From an uncultured Pseudomonadota bacterium (GTDB lineage Bacteria > Pseudomonadota > Alphaproteobacteria > Rs-D84): DNA of 64,000 nt. Made by a program: the position numbers and the translations under genes. The DNA lies in the NCBI GenBank assembly GCA_902788485.1, contig CADAKI010000002.1, positions 25,205-89,204 of the forward strand, given 5' to 3'. The notes beneath the pieces were generated by a model, which searched no databases, had not been told where the DNA came from, and was given only the letters and a program-made list of their open reading frames with translations. Positions 2,421 through 32,673 of this stretch are shown here, piece by piece; the first letter of the stretch is position 1; each line of letters starts with the position of its first letter.

Positions 2421-4365
2421 AAGGTGTTTTTTCTAATTTCCCAGATTTATAAATCACAAACCCATTGTGCAAAATTTTGTGATTGCATTTTGGCGCCGAT
2501 ATATCAAAGAAAGACACAATAAAATCTATATCGTCATCACGACATAAATTCACAATGTTTTTATGCAGTGGCACAAATTTTTGTATATATGCCAGGGTCC
2601 ATTTTTCCGATTTATATATGCACACACCATCCGGACATTTGCGACGAATATTTGTGTCTTGCGCCGCTTCATTATTCAATTTACGGAAAGTATTAAATGC
2701 GAAATAATGATTTGATGCGCGTGCCTTATTAAATTCCAGTTTCTCATCATACACCATACCAATCAATTCATGGTCACCTGTTGCATAAAATACAGGTGTT
2801 TCGCGCGCGGCAACAATTACGCATCCAATCGCGACACATAATACACACAACAAATAATTTGCATGGCGATAAACGAAATTTTTGGAATCAGACACCGGTT
2901 TTATTAAAATCAACAACACTAACCCAACTACAAAAAACACAAATGCGTTTGTTGGAATGTGCGGCATTACGATGTTTGCCATTGGCAACGCAACAATTTT
3001 ATTTGCAATCATGAACGCGAAATTATAAATACTCATCGCGACATTTAATAATAAATGTCCATGGAACATCGCGCATATTGTGCCAATCAAAACCAACGGC
3101 ATAATCGCGACAGAAAATATCGGCAATAAAATTAAATTTCCAATCAAACTATACATCGGTATCAAATTAAAATGTGTTGCGATAAATGGCATTGTGAAAA
3201 TCGTCGCAATAATAGATGTCATGGTCGCCACATAAAATCCATTTTTTATTTTTGCAATGCGTGTTTTAGAATCAAATTTTTTATCGCCAAAAAACCAAAT
3301 TAAACCAAATATTGCCGCAAAAGATAATTGAAACCCGGGTTGTGTCACAAAGTGTGGATTTACCAAAAATAAAATTAAAAACGCGATTGAAATATTGCGC
3401 ATTGATATCGCACTGCGTCCCAACAATAACGCCAAAAATAATACAGATGTCATCAAAAATGCGCGCCATGTTGCAACACCGAATCCAGACATACAAACAT
3501 ATAAAAATAATAACACCCACGCACAAATTGTTGCCGTGTATCGCGCCGGAAAACGCCTGGTTAAAAATCCGCATCCGCGCATCAGAAAATAAAATATTGC
3601 AAATAACCATCCACCAATCAGTGTCATGTGAAAACCACTGATTGACCAAATGTGCCCAACACCGGCGGTGGTCCAAATTTGTTTGTGTGTTATCGGTACA
3701 GAATTTTTATACCCCAACACCAACCCATCGGTTAGAAAAGAATTTGCGCGATTATGGATTGTATCGCGTAATTGATTTATGTTTGCCCCTGATACATGTG
3801 ATATGACGTTATAATCATCAATAAACCCATTTGCGGTCAAATTATTAAAATATGCCCAACGCGCATAATCGAAAGTTTCCGGTGCCTCAATCGATGCCGG
3901 CGGAAATAAAAACGCATGTGCCGAAATTACATCACCAATTTGTGGCGTCGTCGCGCCATTGGAAACAGTGACGCGAACATTTGCATCGCGCGACACACCC
4001 AAATCAGACGCCGGTACACGCAACATTATACGCGTTTTTTCATCTGAAAAATCAATGTTTGTAATTGTTGCCGTAATATTTTTATCGCGCAGTGCATATT
4101 TTAATACCGGTGTTGACACAATGATATGTGTATAAAATGCCGCATATAAAAATCCGCACACAAAACACATAAACGCGCGAAATAAAAAATTCATTTTTGC
4201 AAACAATAAAATTATAACGGCGGTAACAAAAGCCACAGGCATAAATTTGATATTGGGTTCAACCGGCATAATAAAATACAATCCCGCACCAAATGCCAAT
4301 AAAAACGGCACCCATAAAAATTTATCGTTAAATTGTTTGTTCAGGAATTCTGTCATAATCAACAT
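2389..4365 (-). CDS. comEC: ComEC/Rec2 family competence membrane protein (no metallo-beta-lactamase domain)
   Basis: Multi-TM competence-domain core and N-terminal DUF4131-like region. The C-terminus lacks the HxHxDH motif. It overlaps the truA end convergently by 32 nt. Confidence 0.65.
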   Translation of the reverse strand: MLIMTEFLNKQFNDKFLWVPFLLAFGAGLYFIMPVEPNIKFMPVAFVTAVIILLFAKMNFLFRAFMCFVCGFLYAAFYTHIIVSTPVLKYALRDKNITATITNIDFSDEKTRIMLRVPASDLGVSRDANVRVTVSNGATTPQIGDVISAHAFLFPPASIEAPETFDYARWAYFNNLTANGFIDDYNVISHVSGANINQLRDTIHNRANSFLTDGLVLGYKNSVPITHKQIWTTAGVGHIWSISGFHMTLIGGWLFAIFYFLMRGCGFLTRRFPARYTATICAWVLLFLYVCMSGFGVATWRAFLMTSVLFLALLLGRSAISMRNISIAFLILFLVNPHFVTQPGFQLSFAAIFGLIWFFGDKKFDSKTRIAKIKNGFYVATMTSIIATIFTMPFIATHFNLIPMYSLIGNLILLPIFSVAIMPLVLIGTICAMFHGHLLLNVAMSIYNFAFMIANKIVALPMANIVMPHIPTNAFVFFVVGLVLLILIKPVSDSKNFVYRHANYLLCVLCVAIGCVIVAARETPVFYATGDHELIGMVYDEKLEFNKARASNHYFAFNTFRKLNNEAAQDTNIRRKCPDGVCIYKSEKWTLAYIQKFVPLHKNIVNLCRDDDIDFIVSFFDISAPKCNHKILHNGFVIYKSGKLEKTPFNRWWNNPHE

Positions 4366-4433
4366 TATAAAATTTTATACTTGCGTCGCAATTAATATTT
4401 TTTATACGATAATATTACATAAGGAGAAAACTT

Positions 4434-6002
4434 ATGTCGAAATATATCTTTGTCACCGGTGGTGTAGTTTCCAGTTTAGGCAAGGGCGTTTCAGCGGCAT
4501 CGTTGGGCGCCCTTCTTCAATCCCGTGGATACAGTGTCCATGTTCGTAAATTTGACCCATATTTGAATATTGATCCGGGGACGATGTCACCCTTGCAACA
4601 TGGCGAGGTTTATGTCACCAATGACGGCCATGAAACAGACCTGGATTTGGGATATTATGAACGTTTTTTGAATATTAAATTGTCGCGTAATGATTCTGTA
4701 TCTGGTGGGCGCATATATTGGGATGTATTAAATGCGGAACGGCGTGGGGAATACCTGGGGTCGACGGTGCAAATGATTCCGCATGTCAGCAATAAAATCA
4801 AAGAATACATTGGTGCACCCACGGGAACCGATTTTGTAATTTGTGAAATTGGTGGCACCGTTGGCGATATCGAAGGCAAAATATTCTTGGAATCCATACG
4901 TCAATTTGCAAATGATATTGGTCGCCGTAATGTGTTGTTTGCGCATTTAACATTGGCGCCATATTTGGAACAAAGTGGTGAATTAAAAACAAAACCGACA
5001 CAAATGTCTGTGCGTAGATTGTTGGAAAACGGAATCCAGGCGGATATTTTATTTGTTCGTTCACCACGTATGTTGACCGATGACGAACGGGCAAAAATCG
5101 GCATGTTTTGTAATTTGCCATCAAAAAATGTCATAACCAGTATGGATGTTGATAATATTTATAAAATCCCACTGGGGTATGATGCGCAACATGTATTTGA
5201 TATCATGGCGGAACATTTTGGTTTGCCAAATGCGTCGGGCAATATGTCAAAATTTACCAAGATAAAACATTACCTGGAATCTGATTTACCGGTATGCACG
5301 ATTGGGGTTGTTGGTAAATATTTTGATATTTCCGATGCGTATAAATCTTTGAACGAGGCGTTGTTCCATGCCGCCATGCAAAACAATGTCCAAATAAAAA
5401 TTAAAAAAATAAATGCAGAAACATTTTCGCCCGATGATTGTATCGGTGTTGATGGAATTTTAATTCCGGGCGGTTTTGGAACGCGTGGTGTCGAAGGAAA
5501 AATTGCTGCCGCTGGATACGCACGTGAAAACAATATTCCATTTATGGGGATATGCCTGGGGATGCAGGTTTCTGTTATTGAATTTATGCGAAATGTTGTG
5601 GGTGATAAAAATGCAAATTCTACAGAATTCGCCAAAGATTGCACACCGGTTGTTTATATTATGCCTGATTGTAATCGTGACAATATGGGCGGAACATTGC
5701 GATTGGGGGCATATCCGTGCAAAATTAAACATGGAACATTGGCGGAACGCATTTATGGCACGACCGAAATTTCTGAACGGCACCGTCATCGGTACGAGGT
5801 TAATATGGAATACAAAGATGTGTTGGAAAAAGCGGGCATGATAATATCCGGTATGTCGCCAGATGGTAAATTGCCAGAAATTATTGAAATACCATCGCAT
5901 AAATTTTTTATTGCCGGTCAATTTCATCCAGAATTCCAAAGCAATCCATACACCGGTCACCCGATGTTTAATGCATTTGTTGCCGCCGCAATGAAAAAGT
6001 AA
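4434..6002 (+). CDS. pyrG: CTP synthase
   Basis: N-terminal MSKYIFVTGGVVSSLGKG and the C-terminal glutamine amidotransferase GICLGMQ motif. Confidence 0.95.
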   Translation: MSKYIFVTGGVVSSLGKGVSAASLGALLQSRGYSVHVRKFDPYLNIDPGTMSPLQHGEVYVTNDGHETDLDLGYYERFLNIKLSRNDSVSGGRIYWDVLNAERRGEYLGSTVQMIPHVSNKIKEYIGAPTGTDFVICEIGGTVGDIEGKIFLESIRQFANDIGRRNVLFAHLTLAPYLEQSGELKTKPTQMSVRRLLENGIQADILFVRSPRMLTDDERAKIGMFCNLPSKNVITSMDVDNIYKIPLGYDAQHVFDIMAEHFGLPNASGNMSKFTKIKHYLESDLPVCTIGVVGKYFDISDAYKSLNEALFHAAMQNNVQIKIKKINAETFSPDDCIGVDGILIPGGFGTRGVEGKIAAAGYARENNIPFMGICLGMQVSVIEFMRNVVGDKNANSTEFAKDCTPVVYIMPDCNRDNMGGTLRLGAYPCKIKHGTLAERIYGTTEISERHRHRYEVNMEYKDVLEKAGMIISGMSPDGKLPEIIEIPSHKFFIAGQFHPEFQSNPYTGHPMFNAFVAAAMKK

Positions 6003-27000: not shown

Positions 27001-27735
27001 ATGCGTAAATATGCGTTTATAATTTTGTGTTTGATGTTGGTATCGGCATGTGATAAACACGACCCGATTTTACCTGGGGTTCGTACAGAAATATTTAATA
27101 CATCAACCATGAAAATATTAAATGTGCCGGTTGAAAATTTACCTGATGCGGTATCTCCGCGCGATGCAATTGATTGCAAATACACAATCGATGCGAATAA
27201 CATTGTGCGTGATGATGCCGGACATAAAATTTTTGTTGGTTTTCCATCCCCAAATTCGGTTGATATTGAAACCAAACCATTATGCAATGGTGGATATGTT
27301 TACGCCGGATTAAATACCGGTAATGTTGTAAAAATTGCGCCGAAAAATCGCAATATCGTATGGATGACGGATGTGTTTGCAGAAAACAATATGACGGGCG
27401 GGGCGACAACGGTTGATATTGTTGCACCATTGGTGATTGATGGTGCGTATGTTTTTGCCGCTGGTATGGGTGACGCATTTTGTAAAATAAATGTGTCCAA
27501 TGGTAATAAAAAGTGGTGTACCCAAATTGGGACGCGTTTTCCATTTGTTGTTTTACCAAATGTTGCATATATAATGGGCATGGATGATATTTTATATGCG
27601 GTGCGGACATCGGACGGTGCAATATATTGGCATACTGATGTAATAAATAAACCGGGTGCGCCAACATACGAAAACAAAATTATTCATGTTGGAAAAAAAC
27701 AATTTAATGCCACAACGGGCGAAGAAATTAAATAA
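27001..27735 (+). CDS. bamB: BamB-like PQQ-repeat lipoprotein (reduced, 244 aa)
   Basis: Lipobox LVSAC and PQQ-like beta-propeller repeats (GYVYAGLNTGNVVKI, DGAYVFAAG, DDILYAVRTSDGAIYW). It is only about 60% of canonical BamB length. Confidence 0.5.
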   Translation: MRKYAFIILCLMLVSACDKHDPILPGVRTEIFNTSTMKILNVPVENLPDAVSPRDAIDCKYTIDANNIVRDDAGHKIFVGFPSPNSVDIETKPLCNGGYVYAGLNTGNVVKIAPKNRNIVWMTDVFAENNMTGGATTVDIVAPLVIDGAYVFAAGMGDAFCKINVSNGNKKWCTQIGTRFPFVVLPNVAYIMGMDDILYAVRTSDGAIYWHTDVINKPGAPTYENKIIHVGKKQFNATTGEEIK

Positions 27736-28121
27736 AAAAATCTGACATTTTTGTCAGATTTTTTTAAATATCGAAATAAAGCGTCTGGCGTTTGAATCCA
27801 AAATTTTTTAATTCCTAATGTGTGTTTTGCATAGTTTACACATGTCCACGCATTCGGGTTAAAATGCATATCCGGTGGTGATTTCAAATAAATAAAATAC
27901 CATCCATACCGCGCCAGTTGCGAAATTCCACGCATTGTTATTGCAATGTGTGCAACATTACCGCGCCTAACAAATTGGTGTATTATAAAATTATTTTTAC
28001 TTGGCACGATAATTGCACAGTGCTTGAACTTGCCACAAAATATTCGTGCCAAAATCATATTCGTTTTACACGAAAAACCAACGATAATCATTGAATAAAT
28101 CCTTTTAATCAATCCATCCAT
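27684..28121 (-). CDS. YiiX/YaeF-like (DUF830) permuted papain-fold hydrolase, probable lipoprotein
   Basis: FKHCAIIV resembles the YSHVGIVV His motif, and TCVNYAKHTLG resembles the YCSELVWLAYQHAG Cys motif of E. coli YiiX. The His-then-Cys order is typical of the permuted NlpC/P60 clade. N-terminus MDGLIKRIYSMIIVGFSC is lipoprotein-like. Overlaps bamB's 3' end convergently by 52 nt. Confidence 0.4.
   Translation of the reverse strand: MDGLIKRIYSMIIVGFSCKTNMILARIFCGKFKHCAIIVPSKNNFIIHQFVRRGNVAHIAITMRGISQLARYGWYFIYLKSPPDMHFNPNAWTCVNYAKHTLGIKKFWIQTPDALFRYLKKSDKNVRFFYLISSPVVALNCFFPT
27740..27766. terminator. bidirectional rho-independent terminator (ATCTGACA-tttt-TGTCAGAT flanked by A7/T7)
   Basis: Perfect 8-bp stem with T-runs on both strands. 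Confidence 0.55.
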
Positions 28122-28449
28122 TTTTGCGTGCAGTGTTTTCTATTATTTCCATGGCGCCACCCCATAAATACGCATCGTGATTTTCCGACCATATATATTG
28201 GTGTGGTGCGCGTCGCCGGTCGCCATATTTTTTCATAACCCGTAATTGTTCATCGGTCAACCGTCCCGCCAAATACAGTTTTGTAATCATTGTTTCCACA
28301 TCCAACAATTCGCACACACGACGCGTCCCCGCCTGATGATTTTGTGTAATGCCCGTTTGCACAGATTTTGAATAAATAAACCAAAACCACATCTGTTCTG
28401 CATTGTGAAATTTTTCCAAATTATCATTGATGTTTTTTACAGTATTCAT
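28105..28449 (-). CDS. hypothetical protein (114 aa), operonic partner of the YiiX-like gene
   Basis: 17-nt overlap with the downstream gene. No recognisable motifs beyond a possible helix-turn-helix-like segment. Confidence 0.4.
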   Translation of the reverse strand: MNTVKNINDNLEKFHNAEQMWFWFIYSKSVQTGITQNHQAGTRRVCELLDVETMITKLYLAGRLTDEQLRVMKKYGDRRRAPHQYIWSENHDAYLWGGAMEIIENTARKNGWID

Positions 28450-28613
28450 TTTTTTCTCCTTTTATGTTGTTTATTTTATAAATCAAATCCGGAACATTTG
28501 CCAAATATTACAACCCGCGGTTGAAGTTCGAATCGAGAATTATATTGTTTAGCAATATTTTCCTATTTTTATTCGAATCGACGCATGTTCTCGTTTTTTG
28601 ATTTATGATTTAT

Positions 28614-28654
28614 TTAATAAAAAAACACACATCTTTCGATGTGTGTTTTTCATT
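28614..28654 (-). terminator. rho-independent terminator of the virB8-B9-B10 operon (AACACACATC-tttc-GATGTGTGTT + T-run on the minus strand)
   Basis: Perfect 10-bp stem. On the minus strand a T7 tract follows it. It sits 25 nt after the virB10 stop. Confidence 0.65.
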
Positions 28655-28678: not shown

Positions 28679-31108
28679 TCAATTAACCTCGAACGGTGGG
28701 AAACAATCGCCACTGCCCGCCGGGCAACACGCAAATGGGTATTCCGAATCAGGTCCCATTTCCGTATATGTTTCGCCTGTACAGCATCCATTTGCATCGG
28801 GGGCCGTGCCATCTTCGCACAATAATGTGCCAACCGCATTTGTGCCCGCCGCCGGTTTTGGCTGATTAAATGGATTTATGATATTGTCATTTTCATCATA
28901 TTTTAATCCCAAAACCTGTTCATTATACGCCTTGGTTTGTTCTTCTGTTCGATTATCGGTGGTTCCGTATGTGTTTTGGAATGCCTGTTGTTGACTGTTA
29001 TAATATGCATCCTGTTTTGCCATATTAATTGCGGTATAATTTTTGGCCTGACAATACGCCAACACCGTTCTGTAATCGTATCCTGCGTTTGAAATTTCCA
29101 ACGCTTTATTTGAATCTGCGGTCCATACCCCTTTGGAATCTTGGGTGCAATATGGATCCAGGTTAAACGCACGAACTTGTCCAATCCATGAAGAATCTGT
29201 TTTATCAACAGTCATTTTATTTTTTACATCTTTCCACTCGCGCCGTTGTTGTTCGCTGTATTTTTCAAAAGCACATTTTTTGCCCGCATTTGGCCCTTTA
29301 GGGTCGCCACATGTTGCGATTAAATCAACAGGTGAATAAACGGTAATACGTGTTCCGGCGGCAATCGAAAATGGCGGCACGGTATTATCCAATGCATCAA
29401 CCATCAATTTTTGCGCAACCTTGTTCCATGCGGAAATAACCTCGTTCTTGGCCAATTCAGACGACCGCACAGTTCCCGATTGCACAACCGTGTTATTGTC
29501 CAAATCAATTTGATTTACAAATGTATCGGCAATTGGCGCAATCATATTTACCGCCGCCGGAATCACCGCCGTCAACAATGGCATAACCATTTGTTCGATA
29601 TAATCGGTACTGCCGTATCCGGGGACACCGACACGACCCTGGGAATCCGCGGAATACGGATCCTGGTCTTCGTCTTTGAAATTGAATTCGACGCCATCTG
29701 GACGAATAAATTGATACCATTTAATTTCCATACGTCCAATAGATTTATACGGCCCCGGCAAATTACCACGCAAATATCCCAATAATAATGTTCCGGTTGG
29801 AATAATGACCGTGCGTCCATTATCAGAATAAACATTTCTGTCCACCGTTGCACGAACCGGAATACCACTGCCGCCCTTGCAGTTACCGTCGTTATCGCAA
29901 TCATACACGGATGGGTCGGCACGAACCTCGGATACAATGGTTGCCGGAATTGGTTTGAATTGACGTAATATAAATGTGCGGTCGTACGGCATACTGGAAT
30001 ATACAGATTCCCCACCGCTTGCGGACCCTTTTAAAGATTCTGTATTTACTGTATTTGCCACAAAATTCATACCACTTTCATTTGGTTTCATTGTCTTTTT
30101 CAAATTATTCATCCCTTTGGGGGTGTATCCATCGCTTGCCGCCGGGCGCGTTGAAACACCGGTCGATTTTGAACGCAGGTTTGGCACCACATTTGTCGAT
30201 GTTGTGCGATGATCGGCATCGGTTCCAATCTTTGTCCGGCCGTCGATACTTGTAATAATGCCGGTATCCGGATTATAAACACCGGTTGGATTATTGCATT
30301 CCGTATCAGAAAACGGATGAAATTCATATCGACCCGATTTCGGTTTTATCCAACCAATTTGCACACCCGACATATTATATCCAGGCATCGCAAAATCAGA
30401 ACATTTTTCCGGTGCGCGCCGACGTGGTGCGGGGGCAGGTGTGGGTAAATTGTCTTCGAAAATATTTTTTTCGCCACCAACAATCGGTTCGGGCGTATCA
30501 AAATAATCGTCATCGTTAAAATCGTTATCATCGGCAACAATGTCGTCTTCAACAGGCGAGGGTGCAGGTTCCGGTTTCGATTCTGTTTTTTGTTTTTGGA
30601 TGTTGCCTGTGGCACTGACCGGGATAACAATTTTTGATGTTTGTAAATTTGTATCGCGCGAATCGTTTTTATCAAACCATTCAATCAACAATGTGACATC
30701 GCCCGCCACGTCCGTCGTGCCCGGGGTGAACGTCACATCCACAGAACACGGAATATCTTTATTTACCGGTTGATTCGTGCATCCCGCGGTATTCGCCGAA
30801 AATCCCGGTATAGAATTTTCCACACTGACCGAATCAACAATTGCATCATGGGTTGCATTTATACGAAAAACCTGGGTGCGTTTTGTCCCGATTTTAGTAT
30901 TTAAAAAATCTACATTGTTTGGTGTGACAGTCAATGTGATATCATACCCCGTATCCACAACCGGCGTCGGATTCTTGTTCGACCGCCCAATCAATAACAC
31001 CAACAATATCAACACAACAACAAATGCCGCAATCATCAACAGCCAACGAACCGCGGTTGGTGTCGTATCCAATGTTGATTTTATTTTATCTCTCATCGTA
31101 TTTGCCAT
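28679..31108 (-). CDS. virB10: VirB10/TrbI-family T4SS protein with N-terminal beta-rich domain, Pro-rich linker and ~200 aa Cys-rich C-terminal extension
   Basis: Cytoplasmic N-terminus plus TM (LLMIAAFVVVLILLVLLI). Pro-rich segment PEPAPSPV...PTPAPAP. Conserved VirB10 C-terminal barrel motifs (RTVIIPTGTLLLGYLRGNL; ...TRITVYSPVDL). The 809-aa length is about twice that of canonical VirB10. Confidence 0.7.
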   Translation of the reverse strand: MANTMRDKIKSTLDTTPTAVRWLLMIAAFVVVLILLVLLIGRSNKNPTPVVDTGYDITLTVTPNNVDFLNTKIGTKRTQVFRINATHDAIVDSVSVENSIPGFSANTAGCTNQPVNKDIPCSVDVTFTPGTTDVAGDVTLLIEWFDKNDSRDTNLQTSKIVIPVSATGNIQKQKTESKPEPAPSPVEDDIVADDNDFNDDDYFDTPEPIVGGEKNIFEDNLPTPAPAPRRRAPEKCSDFAMPGYNMSGVQIGWIKPKSGRYEFHPFSDTECNNPTGVYNPDTGIITSIDGRTKIGTDADHRTTSTNVVPNLRSKSTGVSTRPAASDGYTPKGMNNLKKTMKPNESGMNFVANTVNTESLKGSASGGESVYSSMPYDRTFILRQFKPIPATIVSEVRADPSVYDCDNDGNCKGGSGIPVRATVDRNVYSDNGRTVIIPTGTLLLGYLRGNLPGPYKSIGRMEIKWYQFIRPDGVEFNFKDEDQDPYSADSQGRVGVPGYGSTDYIEQMVMPLLTAVIPAAVNMIAPIADTFVNQIDLDNNTVVQSGTVRSSELAKNEVISAWNKVAQKLMVDALDNTVPPFSIAAGTRITVYSPVDLIATCGDPKGPNAGKKCAFEKYSEQQRREWKDVKNKMTVDKTDSSWIGQVRAFNLDPYCTQDSKGVWTADSNKALEISNAGYDYRTVLAYCQAKNYTAINMAKQDAYYNSQQQAFQNTYGTTDNRTEEQTKAYNEQVLGLKYDENDNIINPFNQPKPAAGTNAVGTLLCEDGTAPDANGCCTGETYTEMGPDSEYPFACCPAGSGDCFPPFEVN

Positions 31109-31137: not shown

Positions 31138-32673
31138 TTATTGGATTCTGACCACACGACATCCCGAAACCTGGAATTTCATCAGTTTATCACATAATGT
31201 TTGTGCCTCGTCGATATCCGCCAATGGACCAATGCGCAAACGATACATAGTTGCCGACGATACACCCGAACCCAAATCGCCCACACCTTCGGTGTCAATC
31301 GCAAAGAACACTTTGTTTTGATATGGAGTCAAAATTCCGGCACCACCATCGCCACTGAATTTAACCAATAAATCGTTCCAATATTCTTCCAATGCTTTTG
31401 GTGATCTATCAGACGCAAATTCCACCGCCACACCCGATTGATTTGATTTTATCAACGGAATATTTGATTGTGGCAGGTACGAACCGGCGGTATCCCGTGC
31501 GGTTGGAATCATTGTTGTGCCACCCGATGTGGCACCCCCAGACATTGGCACCGCCCCCGGCATATTCATTTGTGCATTACCATATCCCGCCGGCATATAA
31601 GCACCGGTTGCCATTGGATTTTGTACATTTGACATATACATCGGTGTTGCGGTGTAATCCATTGCACCGCCATACATCGCCGACATATCTGCATCATACG
31701 CAATATTATTTAATGATTGCCCAGACATCATGCTTTGCGCAACATTTGCCTCGGCCAACGCCATAACCGACGCGGTATCCGCAATCAAGAACGGCTTTTC
31801 ACGTTTTTTAATACAAACAATGCGTTGACCACTGCGTAAAACCATATCGCCCACGGCCTCGACAATTAATAATCTGCCGTCTTGGCCATCGGTGCGGAAA
31901 CCAACCGGGGATTCGCCACCTTCTATCAACAAAGACACCACAGGACGTTGAGTCATGGCAATAACTTTATCGCCAAAATCAATGTATGTAAATATTTTGT
32001 CGCGCCACACGCGTTCCGGCGCAATTACATAATCGTCCGGGTTTGGAACGAAAATATCCAAATCAAAACGGAATTCAGACGGGTCGATTTTCATCGATTT
32101 TATCCACGCATAATCTTCGCCATCAACACCAATGGTATTGGTGGTTGGTGCCGCTTTGCGGAATATAGAATTCATCCCACCGGATTGGCGTTGTGTGGCA
32201 GGTGTTGCATTTGCAATTGTTGCGCCATTGTCCAAAACAACATCCACCTGGGAATAAGAAATTTCATTTGCATCGACGGTGCCTGGACTGGACAAATAGA
32301 ATATGTATTTATTTCCCGATTGTCCCGTCACAATCATGTTGGTGTCCGATTCTGATGCTTCGATGGGGGTGATGTAAAAAGTACGATCGCCCTGGGTTGC
32401 CTCGATTTGATACAAAGATTGGTCGCCAACAACCGCATCGGCAATTTGTTCGCCATTTGGCAATGTTACCATCGTCACCATACCATTACGCAACTTTAAT
32501 GGCAAAACCGTTCCGGTTGACCACCCCAGTTGTGCATATCCAGGTTTTGTACTGCCGGTGGCCATGTTTGCCGTTGGGTTTTCCCATGCGCGTTGCACCA
32601 CGGCATTTGCGATGTCAACGGACATCAAAAACAAACAAGAAACAATTCCGTTGATTTTCAAAAACTTTAACAT
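31138..32673 (-). CDS. virB9: VirB9/CagX-family T4SS protein fused to a Met/Gly/Tyr-rich linker and a C-terminal SPOR domain
   Basis: Signal peptide. VirB9 N- and C-domain beta-sandwich regions (FYITPIE..., TDGQDGRLLIVEAVGDMVLRSGQRIVCI). A low-complexity region rich in M, G, A and Y. Terminal ~75 aa (…YRLRIGPLADIDEAQTLCDKL…CRVVRIQ) is SPOR-like. Confidence 0.65.
   Translation of the reverse strand: MLKFLKINGIVSCLFLMSVDIANAVVQRAWENPTANMATGSTKPGYAQLGWSTGTVLPLKLRNGMVTMVTLPNGEQIADAVVGDQSLYQIEATQGDRTFYITPIEASESDTNMIVTGQSGNKYIFYLSSPGTVDANEISYSQVDVVLDNGATIANATPATQRQSGGMNSIFRKAAPTTNTIGVDGEDYAWIKSMKIDPSEFRFDLDIFVPNPDDYVIAPERVWRDKIFTYIDFGDKVIAMTQRPVVSLLIEGGESPVGFRTDGQDGRLLIVEAVGDMVLRSGQRIVCIKKREKPFLIADTASVMALAEANVAQSMMSGQSLNNIAYDADMSAMYGGAMDYTATPMYMSNVQNPMATGAYMPAGYGNAQMNMPGAVPMSGGATSGGTTMIPTARDTAGSYLPQSNIPLIKSNQSGVAVEFASDRSPKALEEYWNDLLVKFSGDGGAGILTPYQNKVFFAIDTEGVGDLGSGVSSATMYRLRIGPLADIDEAQTLCDKLMKFQVSGCRVVRIQ

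Follow-up and report, generated by a model that had tools for sequence, protein, structure and literature searches.

A Gene Pair Retained Beside virB8–virB10 in the Order Rs-D84 Encodes a Predicted Minimal Permuted Papain-Like Protein and a Small Helical Partner

The window analyzed here is a 64-kb stretch of contig CADAKI010000002.1 (positions 25,205 to 89,204) from an uncultured alphaproteobacterium of the order Rs-D84. Directly downstream of its type IV secretion system (T4SS) genes virB8, virB9, and virB10 it carries two small unannotated genes, here called geneA and geneB. The conserved residues and predicted structure of geneB point, at somewhat better than even odds, to a new minimal family whose catalytic layout is papain-like and permuted and which lies outside the YiiX family (PF05708). 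We predict (probability about 0.5) that geneB acts in the cytoplasm as a Cys-His(-Gln) acyl-hydrolase or acyl-transferase, by way of a thioester intermediate. Members of the Rs-D84/Enterousia lineage are abundant in livestock and human guts, are uncultured, and have fewer than about 1000 genes. Genomes of the order are mostly under 1 Mb (PMC12306168). The main interest of the pair lies in its universal retention beside the secretion-system core of a genome-reduced, uncultured gut lineage; two unannotated genes kept in every species beside the core of the only obvious host-interaction machine are likely to matter for the lifestyle of these bacteria.

The Gene Pair and Its Conserved Core

A prediction made from the letters of this DNA alone (hereafter the original prediction) had proposed two open reading frames (ORFs) of 114 and 145 amino acids (aa) on the same strand, and both are present. 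They lie consecutively on the minus strand, geneA at 28105-28449 (114 aa) and the longest ORF of geneB at 27684-28121 (145 aa), flanked by virB10 on one side and a convergent bamB-like lipoprotein gene on the other. Residue numbers of the geneB ORF equal those of its conserved core plus 10, and core numbering is used below unless stated otherwise.

28105..28449, minus strand: geneA, 114 aa, four predicted helices, first gene of the operon
27684..28121, minus strand: longest ORF of geneB, 145 aa, of which 10 nonconserved aa extend the N-terminus and 22 aa at the C-terminus are a read-through tail
27753..28091, minus strand: conserved core of geneB, Met11-Asp123 of the ORF, 113 aa, predicted alpha/beta fold whose putative His, Gln, and Cys triad follows the permuted papain-like order
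28020..28022, minus strand: codon of the putative catalytic His (His34 of the ORF, His24 of the core)
27975..27977, minus strand: codon of the putative third triad residue Gln (Gln49 of the ORF, Gln39 of the core), 15 residues after the His
27840..27842, minus strand: codon of the putative catalytic Cys (Cys94 of the ORF, Cys84 of the core)

Conserved Residues and Predicted Fold of geneB

Residue conservation was assessed in an alignment of 80 geneB relatives (21–59% identity) and separately in 76 Rs-D84 species loci. The motifs KHCAIIV and TCVNYAKH, which had been taken to hold the catalytic residues, are present, and their His and Cys are invariant in 80/80 diverse relatives and 76/76 species loci. 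Across the 80 relatives the sole invariant residues are His24, Cys84, and Pro102, of which the His and the Cys have catalytic potential; F6, G63, V85, K89, T101, and L105 are near-invariant. Core position 39 is polar in 78 of the 80 (Q30/D30/N10/E5/H3) and is Gln in 74 of the 76 Rs-D84 species. Its spacing of 15 from His24 is identical to that of the catalytic pair H49-E64 in E. coli YiiX and in B. cereus BcPPNE (PMC3142127).

The AlphaFold (AF2) model of geneB (pLDDT 86.7, pTM 0.80) comprises, in order, b1, a1, b2, b3, b4, a2, b5, a3, and a4 (b, strand; a, helix). His24 is the first residue of b2 (strand 24-31), Gln39 lies on b3, and Cys84 is the first residue of a3 (helix 84-92), which follows strand 5 after ∼15 residues. 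In the model the His thus starts a strand and the Cys starts a C-terminal helix; this is the order of elements described for permuted NlpC/P60 enzymes, whose catalytic Cys heads a helix (PMC3142127). A Foldseek search of the PDB returned YiiX (2if6) at rank 1 (E 0.26, prob 0.47, TMq 0.45, rmsd 10.5) and the YiiX-like Cys peptidase 3kw0 at ranks 2-3 and 5-6, all of them weak (E 0.26-0.45). Further matches were vasohibins, DUF1460, and a herpesvirus deubiquitinase, which are papain- or transglutaminase-like Cys enzymes, and none had E<1e-3. Among the viral models of BFVD, the strong matches are uncharacterized phage proteins (E 1e-5, TM 0.65-0.73); a YaeF/YiiX C92 enzyme of Medusavirus and poxvirus OPG091 are among the weak ones (E 0.3-0.8).

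Several results weigh against the proposed enzyme and its tie to the secretion system. Scans of geneB against Pfam (E≤10), NCBIfam, PHROG, and PADLOC returned no family, 82 relatives contained neither PF05708 nor any other relevant Pfam family (E≤1), and PDB sequence searches with the geneB family profiles gave chance matches only. A profile–profile comparison (hhalign) with 22 YiiX orthologs assembled for this test was not significant (P = 0.2-0.25); its alignment spans the N-terminal half only and pairs His24 with His49 and Gln39 with Glu64. The top Foldseek match is likewise nonsignificant, and the domain is much smaller than YiiX (113 vs. 202 aa), without the helical insert that forms the lipid pocket. 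An active-site Tyr before the Cys, such as Tyr115 of YiiX or Tyr127 of BcPPNE, is missing, with no conserved residue in core columns 66-82; the sole conserved aromatic, Y/F106, lies after the Cys. In the Rs-D84 clade Cys19, His24, Cys25, and Cys84 are all conserved, which together with the high isoelectric point (pI) would suit a protein that binds metal or nucleic acid as well. Lying next to virB10 is weak functional evidence in slowly rearranging, reduced genomes, where nusG-secE on the other side is equally syntenic, and a promoter of the pair's own behind the virB10 terminator further weakens functional inference from that adjacency.

The most serious competing explanation, a genuine minority possibility, is that geneB is a nonenzymatic small, basic, phage-derived protein binding metal or nucleic acid, in which the His and Cys would be ligands or structural residues and which would form a regulatory module with geneA. 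The product is ∼13 kDa with a pI of 10.1 (about 10 across 76 species), and its small size, the missing NlpC/P60 signature Tyr, the conserved Rs-D84 cysteines, and the want of any significant enzyme-family match would all suit such a protein, as would the elaborate conserved operator-like DNA upstream and the occurrence of phage relatives in early-gene blocks as well as beside terL. However, a metal site would need more than the single His and single Cys that are invariant family-wide; Cys19 gives way to K/R in the phage clade, and 20% of sequences have V/T/S in place of Cys25. A polar residue at exactly +15 and the placement of His and Cys at a strand start and a helix start are what a papain-type triad predicts, and the fold searches place Cys hydrolases at the top rather than DNA-binding proteins.

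Membership of the DUF830/YiiX clade, as originally predicted, is not borne out by Pfam (the protein itself or 82 relatives), hhalign, or Foldseek. Pfam and a structural model had been proposed as checks; the former gave no family match, and the latter placed the His at a strand start and the Cys at a helix N-terminus. Absence of an NlpC/P60 match together with loss of the Cys and His was to count against the assignment: no such sequence match was found, yet both residues are retained.

Gene Boundaries and the Shared Terminator

The start of geneB was set by alignment with eight relatives found by a word-indexed search and later with 76 species. The conserved start is Met11 of the ORF (ATG 28089-28091, with AAGGA 8 nt upstream), and Met occupies that profile position in 67 of the 76 species.

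28100..28104, minus strand: geneB ribosome-binding site AAGGA, serving ATG 28089-28091 and adjoining the geneA stop codon (TAA, 28105-28107)
28456..28462, minus strand: geneA ribosome-binding site AAAGGAG, read from the sequence and also found in the related loci aligned
27733..27766, both strands: bidirectional intrinsic terminator shared with the convergent bamB-like gene and embedded in the geneB 3' end

Since the conserved start lies at Met11, the 17-nt overlap between geneA and geneB reported earlier, which does hold for the longest ORF, is an artifact of taking that ORF. The conserved start leaves a gap of 13 nt after the geneA stop in the window, and over 77 species the gap is 11-194 nt (median 26) with overlap never seen. 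The lipoprotein-like N-terminus is lost with the same correction. The N-terminal residues of the core form strand 1 of the fold, the column of Cys18 (ORF numbering), the supposed lipobox residue, reads D/N/G/K/T in relatives, and the best 19-residue hydrophobicity window stays below the transmembrane (TM) threshold; therefore geneB has neither a TM segment nor a lipoprotein or other signal peptide.

The other end of geneB is buried in a terminator hairpin (27733-27766; ΔG -16.8 kcal/mol, z -8.2), of which KKSDKNVRFF in the geneB tail is the in-frame translation. The hairpin is kept across other species, where the geneB stop falls in its loop (TAA), in its stem, or just past the T-run. Most homologs stop ≤5 residues from the profile end, making the tail in the window an outlier, and strains of the same species (geneA 100% identical) have a T-run of either 7T or 8T, giving a predicted geneB of 145 aa or 166 aa. 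Because the tail is of nonconserved length and variable frame, the 52-nt overlap with the bamB-like gene, which had been called odd and is real in the DNA for the longest ORF, is read-through of the shared terminator. In this species the geneB frame stays open through the hairpin and T-run and meets its next stop (27684-27686) ∼45 nt further on; transcripts ending at the terminator would be non-stop mRNAs and candidates for tmRNA tagging.

With its end buried in a terminator shared with a convergent gene, geneB is often missed or mis-delimited by current annotation, and gene callers often overlook it where the convergent gene overlaps. That the 145-aa ORF is a chance ORF or pseudogene, leaving geneA alone functional, could be argued from its overlap with a convergent gene and read-through of the terminator, from the absence of the exact product in a protein search, and from its omission by gene callers in some relatives. 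This is virtually untenable given conservation at the protein level in 76 species, the invariant residues, a confident fold, and 307 clusters at E<1e-3 in an exhaustive hidden Markov model (HMM) search. A single copy among 77 is frameshifted. For the core the idea is refuted; noncoding artifacts are confined to the extensions at the two ends of the ORF.

Proposed Activity and Comparison with Known Enzymes

The two genes form a separately regulated unit fixed right downstream of virB8-virB9-virB10 throughout Rs-D84. That the genes are real, the invariance of the residues, the topology of the model, the synteny, the anatomy of promoter and terminators, and the phage relatives are all shown by the data; the catalysis, the substrate class, the role of geneA, and any functional tie to the T4SS are what we infer. 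In geneB, His34 (ORF numbering), oriented by Gln49, would activate the thiolate of Cys94, which would attack an acyl bond (amide, ester, or thioester) of an intracellular substrate to give an acyl-enzyme that is then either hydrolyzed or made to transfer its acyl group. By analogy with characterized permuted members, peptidoglycan is a less likely substrate than a lipid or a protein that is acylated or isopeptide-linked. GeneA would be the obligate partner of geneB, serving as its regulator, adaptor, or inhibitor.

Those permuted NlpC/P60 enzymes that have been characterized possess a hydrophobic S1 pocket and use lipids or acyl-amides as substrates, as exemplified by YiiX with its bound fatty acid, LRAT/PLAAT, and Tox-Act1, whereas the cutting of peptidoglycan belongs to canonical, nonpermuted NlpC/P60 families (PMC3142127, PMC12994826). 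Given the lipid-directed nature of the permuted enzymes and the missing export signal of geneB, the cell-wall role originally proposed is unlikely. In its full form this role would make geneB a lipoprotein-like amidase or peptidase of the YiiX/YaeF family (DUF830, PF05708) that remodels peptidoglycan for T4SS assembly in place of VirB1, an explanation we consider very improbable. It draws on YiiX and 3kw0 as the best PDB fold matches, on the shared H-x14-polar spacing, and on the adjoining virB8-10 genes in all species, and it is countered by the failure of both Pfam and hhalign to connect the families, by the variable Cys18 and an N-terminus that is a core strand with no signal peptide or lipobox, by the substrates of permuted enzymes (PMC12994826), and by the transcriptional separation of geneA-geneB from virB10.

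Like YiiX and other permuted NlpC/P60 enzymes, geneB has a His, a polar residue, and a Cys in that order, with the 15-residue spacing and, in the model, the His on a strand and the Cys at a helix N-terminus, and it begins with a strand-loop-His-strand unit (GDIIF...SHTG in the YiiX type, MIIVGF...KHCA in geneB); its best Foldseek matches, weak as they are, fall in this group, which has viral members. Unlike them, it has 113 aa rather than about 200 and lacks the helical insert (lipid tunnel) between the sheet and the Cys helix, the conserved Tyr, and any signal or lipoprotein signal, with Gln/Asp/Asn replacing Glu. It shows no significant HMM or profile–profile similarity to these enzymes and has the extra motifs C-V-x3-K-R-x-L-G-I and T-P-x-Q-L-Y.

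LRAT/PLAAT (H-RAS-like suppressor) acyltransferase-phospholipases and picornavirus 2A H-box/NC proteins have a small permuted NlpC/P60 domain in which an N-terminal His-box lies on a strand and a helix begins with the C-terminal Cys. They appear comparable to geneB in size and have viral homologs of unknown role. GeneB differs in having no Pfam LRAT match, NCEHF motif, or C-terminal membrane anchor. PPPDE/DeSI isopeptidases (PF05903; human PPPDE1 Cys108/His38) share the His-then-Cys order, the small soluble domain, and an atypical third residue (PMC3142127); geneB, however, has no Pfam match to them, and they are not among its top 50 Foldseek PDB matches. Like VirB1-type lytic transglycosylases of T4SSs, geneB is a candidate hydrolase encoded beside virB genes, but VirB1 is an exported glycosidase (SLT) of unrelated fold and chemistry and geneB has no export signal.

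If the assignment is true, geneB is the smallest known version of the permuted papain/NlpC-P60 design. Confirmation of its activity would extend the range of that design to cytoplasmic, phage-derived enzymes and would give a handle on an unstudied T4SS.

Distribution and Relatives in Phages

A profile scan of GTDB species genomes found geneA relatives in 246 species, and synteny was counted in the best 80 of these loci. The species-level relatives are named Candidatus Enterousia or uncultured Alphaproteobacteria. Of the 80, 79 have virB10 upstream, and in 77 a geneB ORF follows geneA directly, including one frameshifted copy (L093); in the remaining three the sequence ends right after geneA. 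The order nusG-secE / virB8-virB9-virB10-geneA-geneB is retained in Rs-D84, with a variable downstream neighbor (mostly yidC, bamB here), and more divergent lineages also keep the geneA-geneB pair. One of the loci (L077), with virB10-geneA-geneB of the Rs-D84 type, is on OZ246409.1, a complete 716,531-bp chromosome labeled "uncultured Muribaculaceae bacterium"; the taxonomic label is probably wrong.

GeneA had been described as a partner with no recognizable family; it is not incidental, being the more conserved of the two. It has at least 595 homologous clusters, and the 120 of these listed are 61-100% identical, whereas geneB in the listed clusters is 45-90% identical. An identical product in NCBI is a hypothetical protein of "MAG: Alphaproteobacteria bacterium." Its AF2 model has four helices (pLDDT 78.6), and a fold search with that model gave noise only (best E 2.6). 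Neither geneA nor its 49-member alignment matched Pfam, NCBIfam, PHROG, PADLOC, or PDB sequences. Two distant homologs (E about 1e-13 to the family HMM) were found, both without geneB: one in an early-gene-like block of a linear 55-kb Rhodovastum plasmid and the other in an Azospirillum prophage, with genes for integrase, methylase, TerL, and portal as neighbors. No geneA relatives were found in IMG/VR viral contigs or cultured phages, and none of the plasmid matches lies within a T4SS locus. A DUF6456 protein near one phage geneB relative was considered as a geneA relative and found to be unrelated.

The geneB family comprises at least 300 sequence clusters, mostly phage-borne, and is described by no database. 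Outside the order its relatives occur without geneA. Some sit between terL and the portal gene, namely in a prophage-like contig and in the Vibrio podophages CKB-S2, 284E43-1, and PG9A, and others are in early-gene blocks of phage contigs; every phage relative is labeled "hypothetical." A fixed terL-portal position thus holds for some relatives only, and because positions vary, no function is inferred from them. The linkage to T4SS genes is confined to one order, whose gene arrangement is strongly conserved, the outside relatives being in phages and not in T4SS loci. No match to geneB was found on 72,556 plasmids, and neither gene has homology to VirB, VirD, Tra, or Trb families in Pfam or NCBIfam. 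From the occurrence of geneB relatives in phages and of geneA relatives in a prophage and a linear plasmid we infer that both look like domesticated phage genes, combined in the ancestor of Rs-D84.

In one metagenomic protein of 671 aa (P0166), a geneB-like domain stands in frame with an ABC exporter (ABC_membrane + ABC_tran). A C39 peptidase domain occupies that position in bacteriocin exporters. P0166 is either a genuine fusion or the read-through of a lost stop codon, and was not used as evidence.

The distribution also bears on the proposal that geneB is a toxic enzyme, either a T4SS effector or the toxin of a toxin–antitoxin system, with geneA as its immunity protein, antitoxin, or secretion chaperone. 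A tight two-gene operon with a small upstream partner, relatives of both genes in phages or mobile elements, and a basic geneB C-terminus (net +3 over the last 20 aa) are all in keeping with this proposal, and type VI secretion system (T6SS) loci do hold permuted NlpC/P60 toxins with adjacent immunity genes (PMC12994826). Yet the locus is a single-copy, fixed, syntenic part of the core in every informative species locus, neither patchy nor mobile, geneA is more conserved than geneB, which is the opposite of an arms-race pattern, PADLOC gave no match, and phage geneB relatives occur without geneA. We therefore regard a toxic role as unlikely, including the classic effector/immunity pair of the original prediction. 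One parallel is Tox-Act1/TseH, also a putative permuted Cys-His enzyme encoded beside secretion-system structural genes with a small conserved neighbor (PMC12994826). Those proteins, however, are polymorphic and patchy T6SS cargo acting in the periplasm, with membrane immunity proteins, whereas geneA-geneB is core, syntenic, cytoplasmic, and beside a T4SS, and has a soluble partner more conserved than the enzyme.

Returning to geneB as an acyl-directed enzyme, we offer a broader scenario only tentatively, as one that may well prove wrong: a minimal (∼110 aa) permuted papain-like clade would be widespread in phages, and one copy would have been domesticated together with geneA at the root of Rs-D84, becoming an indispensable, separately regulated module of the T4SS locus. 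Such a module might, for instance, consist of a translocated effector with deacylase or isopeptidase activity and its dedicated chaperone, or it might be an enzyme that matures a component of the secretion system.

Upstream Region and Regulation

The 230-nt spacer between virB10 and geneA is conserved over 79 sequences, the alignment used for all column identities given here, and contains the following features.

28621..28650, minus strand: intrinsic terminator of virB10, 13/13-bp inverted repeat, ΔG -18.0, z -5.9, present in related loci too
28572..28581, no strand: promoter-distal copy of TTCGAATCGA, 45 nt from the other copy
28527..28536, no strand: promoter-proximal copy of TTCGAATCGA (coding strand TCGATTCGAA), containing GANTC
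28511..28523, no strand: inverted repeat CAACC-N3-GGTTG, just upstream of the -35 hexamer, operator-like, at least 90% column conservation
28499..28504, minus strand: inferred -35-like hexamer TTGGCA, moderately conserved, mostly <75% column identity, majority consensus TTTTACA
28475..28480, minus strand: inferred -10-like hexamer TATAAA, 18 nt after the -35 hexamer

The virB10 terminator separates virB8-10 from the geneA-geneB unit, and because a promoter region of its own follows this strong terminator, geneA-geneB is, as far as its sequence tells, an independently regulated transcription unit. Two copies of TTCGAATCGA had been noted upstream of geneA; there are exactly two, at 28527 and 28572, with no other exact copy in the window, and their core CGATTCG has a column identity of 75% to over 90%. 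The CAACC-N3-GGTTG repeat was also considered as an RNA hairpin or attenuator. It is not stable as RNA (z -0.07) and is therefore read as a putative protein-binding DNA site. A regulatory motif shared with virB8 was ruled out, the region upstream of that gene having neither the CGATTCG box nor a CAAC-N5-GTTG repeat.

GANTC is the CcrM methylation motif of Alphaproteobacteria. Its presence in both CGATTCG boxes hints at cell-cycle or methylation-dependent control, and in the window as a whole it is mildly under-represented (146 observed vs. 237 expected from base composition).

Neighboring Genes

Apart from the secretion genes, the window is ordinary chromosome, with rpoH, nusG, rpoB/C-sized ORFs, yidC, CTP synthase, and the like.

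28679-31108, minus strand: virB10, TrbI domain, preceded by virB9 (CagX + SPOR) and virB8
27001-27735, convergent to geneB: bamB-like gene, PQQ_2

The VirB10 homolog is very long (809 aa), with its TrbI domain confined to residues 387-592; its N-terminal half is rich in Pro and Asp, and its C-terminal tail (...CEDGTAPDANGCCTGE...ACCPAGSGDCFPPFEVN) is rich in Cys. The VirB9/CagX homolog (511 aa, 31138-32673, minus strand) carries at its C-terminus a SPOR peptidoglycan-binding domain (E 1.1e-4, slightly above the Pfam cut-off), an unusual addition to a T4SS outer-membrane core protein. Antisense to the bamB-like gene are minus-strand ORFs of 190 aa (27095-27667) and 125 aa (27300-27677), which we assume to be by-products of skewed composition and not genes.

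Composition of the Window

The dinucleotide AG/CT is extremely depleted in the window. Its symmetrized odds ratio is 0.29 overall and stays within 0.24-0.41 across all 8-kb bins; the counts are 1164 for AG and 1119 for CT, compared with about 3000-5400 for each other dinucleotide that was counted. The same depletion is seen in related Rs-D84 loci (L019-L098; median 0.51, range 0.26-0.82), while the controls, E. coli and Vibrio phage, have ratios of 0.83-0.96. Owing to this depletion, CTNAG is found only six times and AGNCT only five times in the 64 kb. GATC is also strongly under-represented (26 observed vs. 193 expected under a first-order Markov model), which suggests a GATC-directed restriction system or a methylation-related bias.

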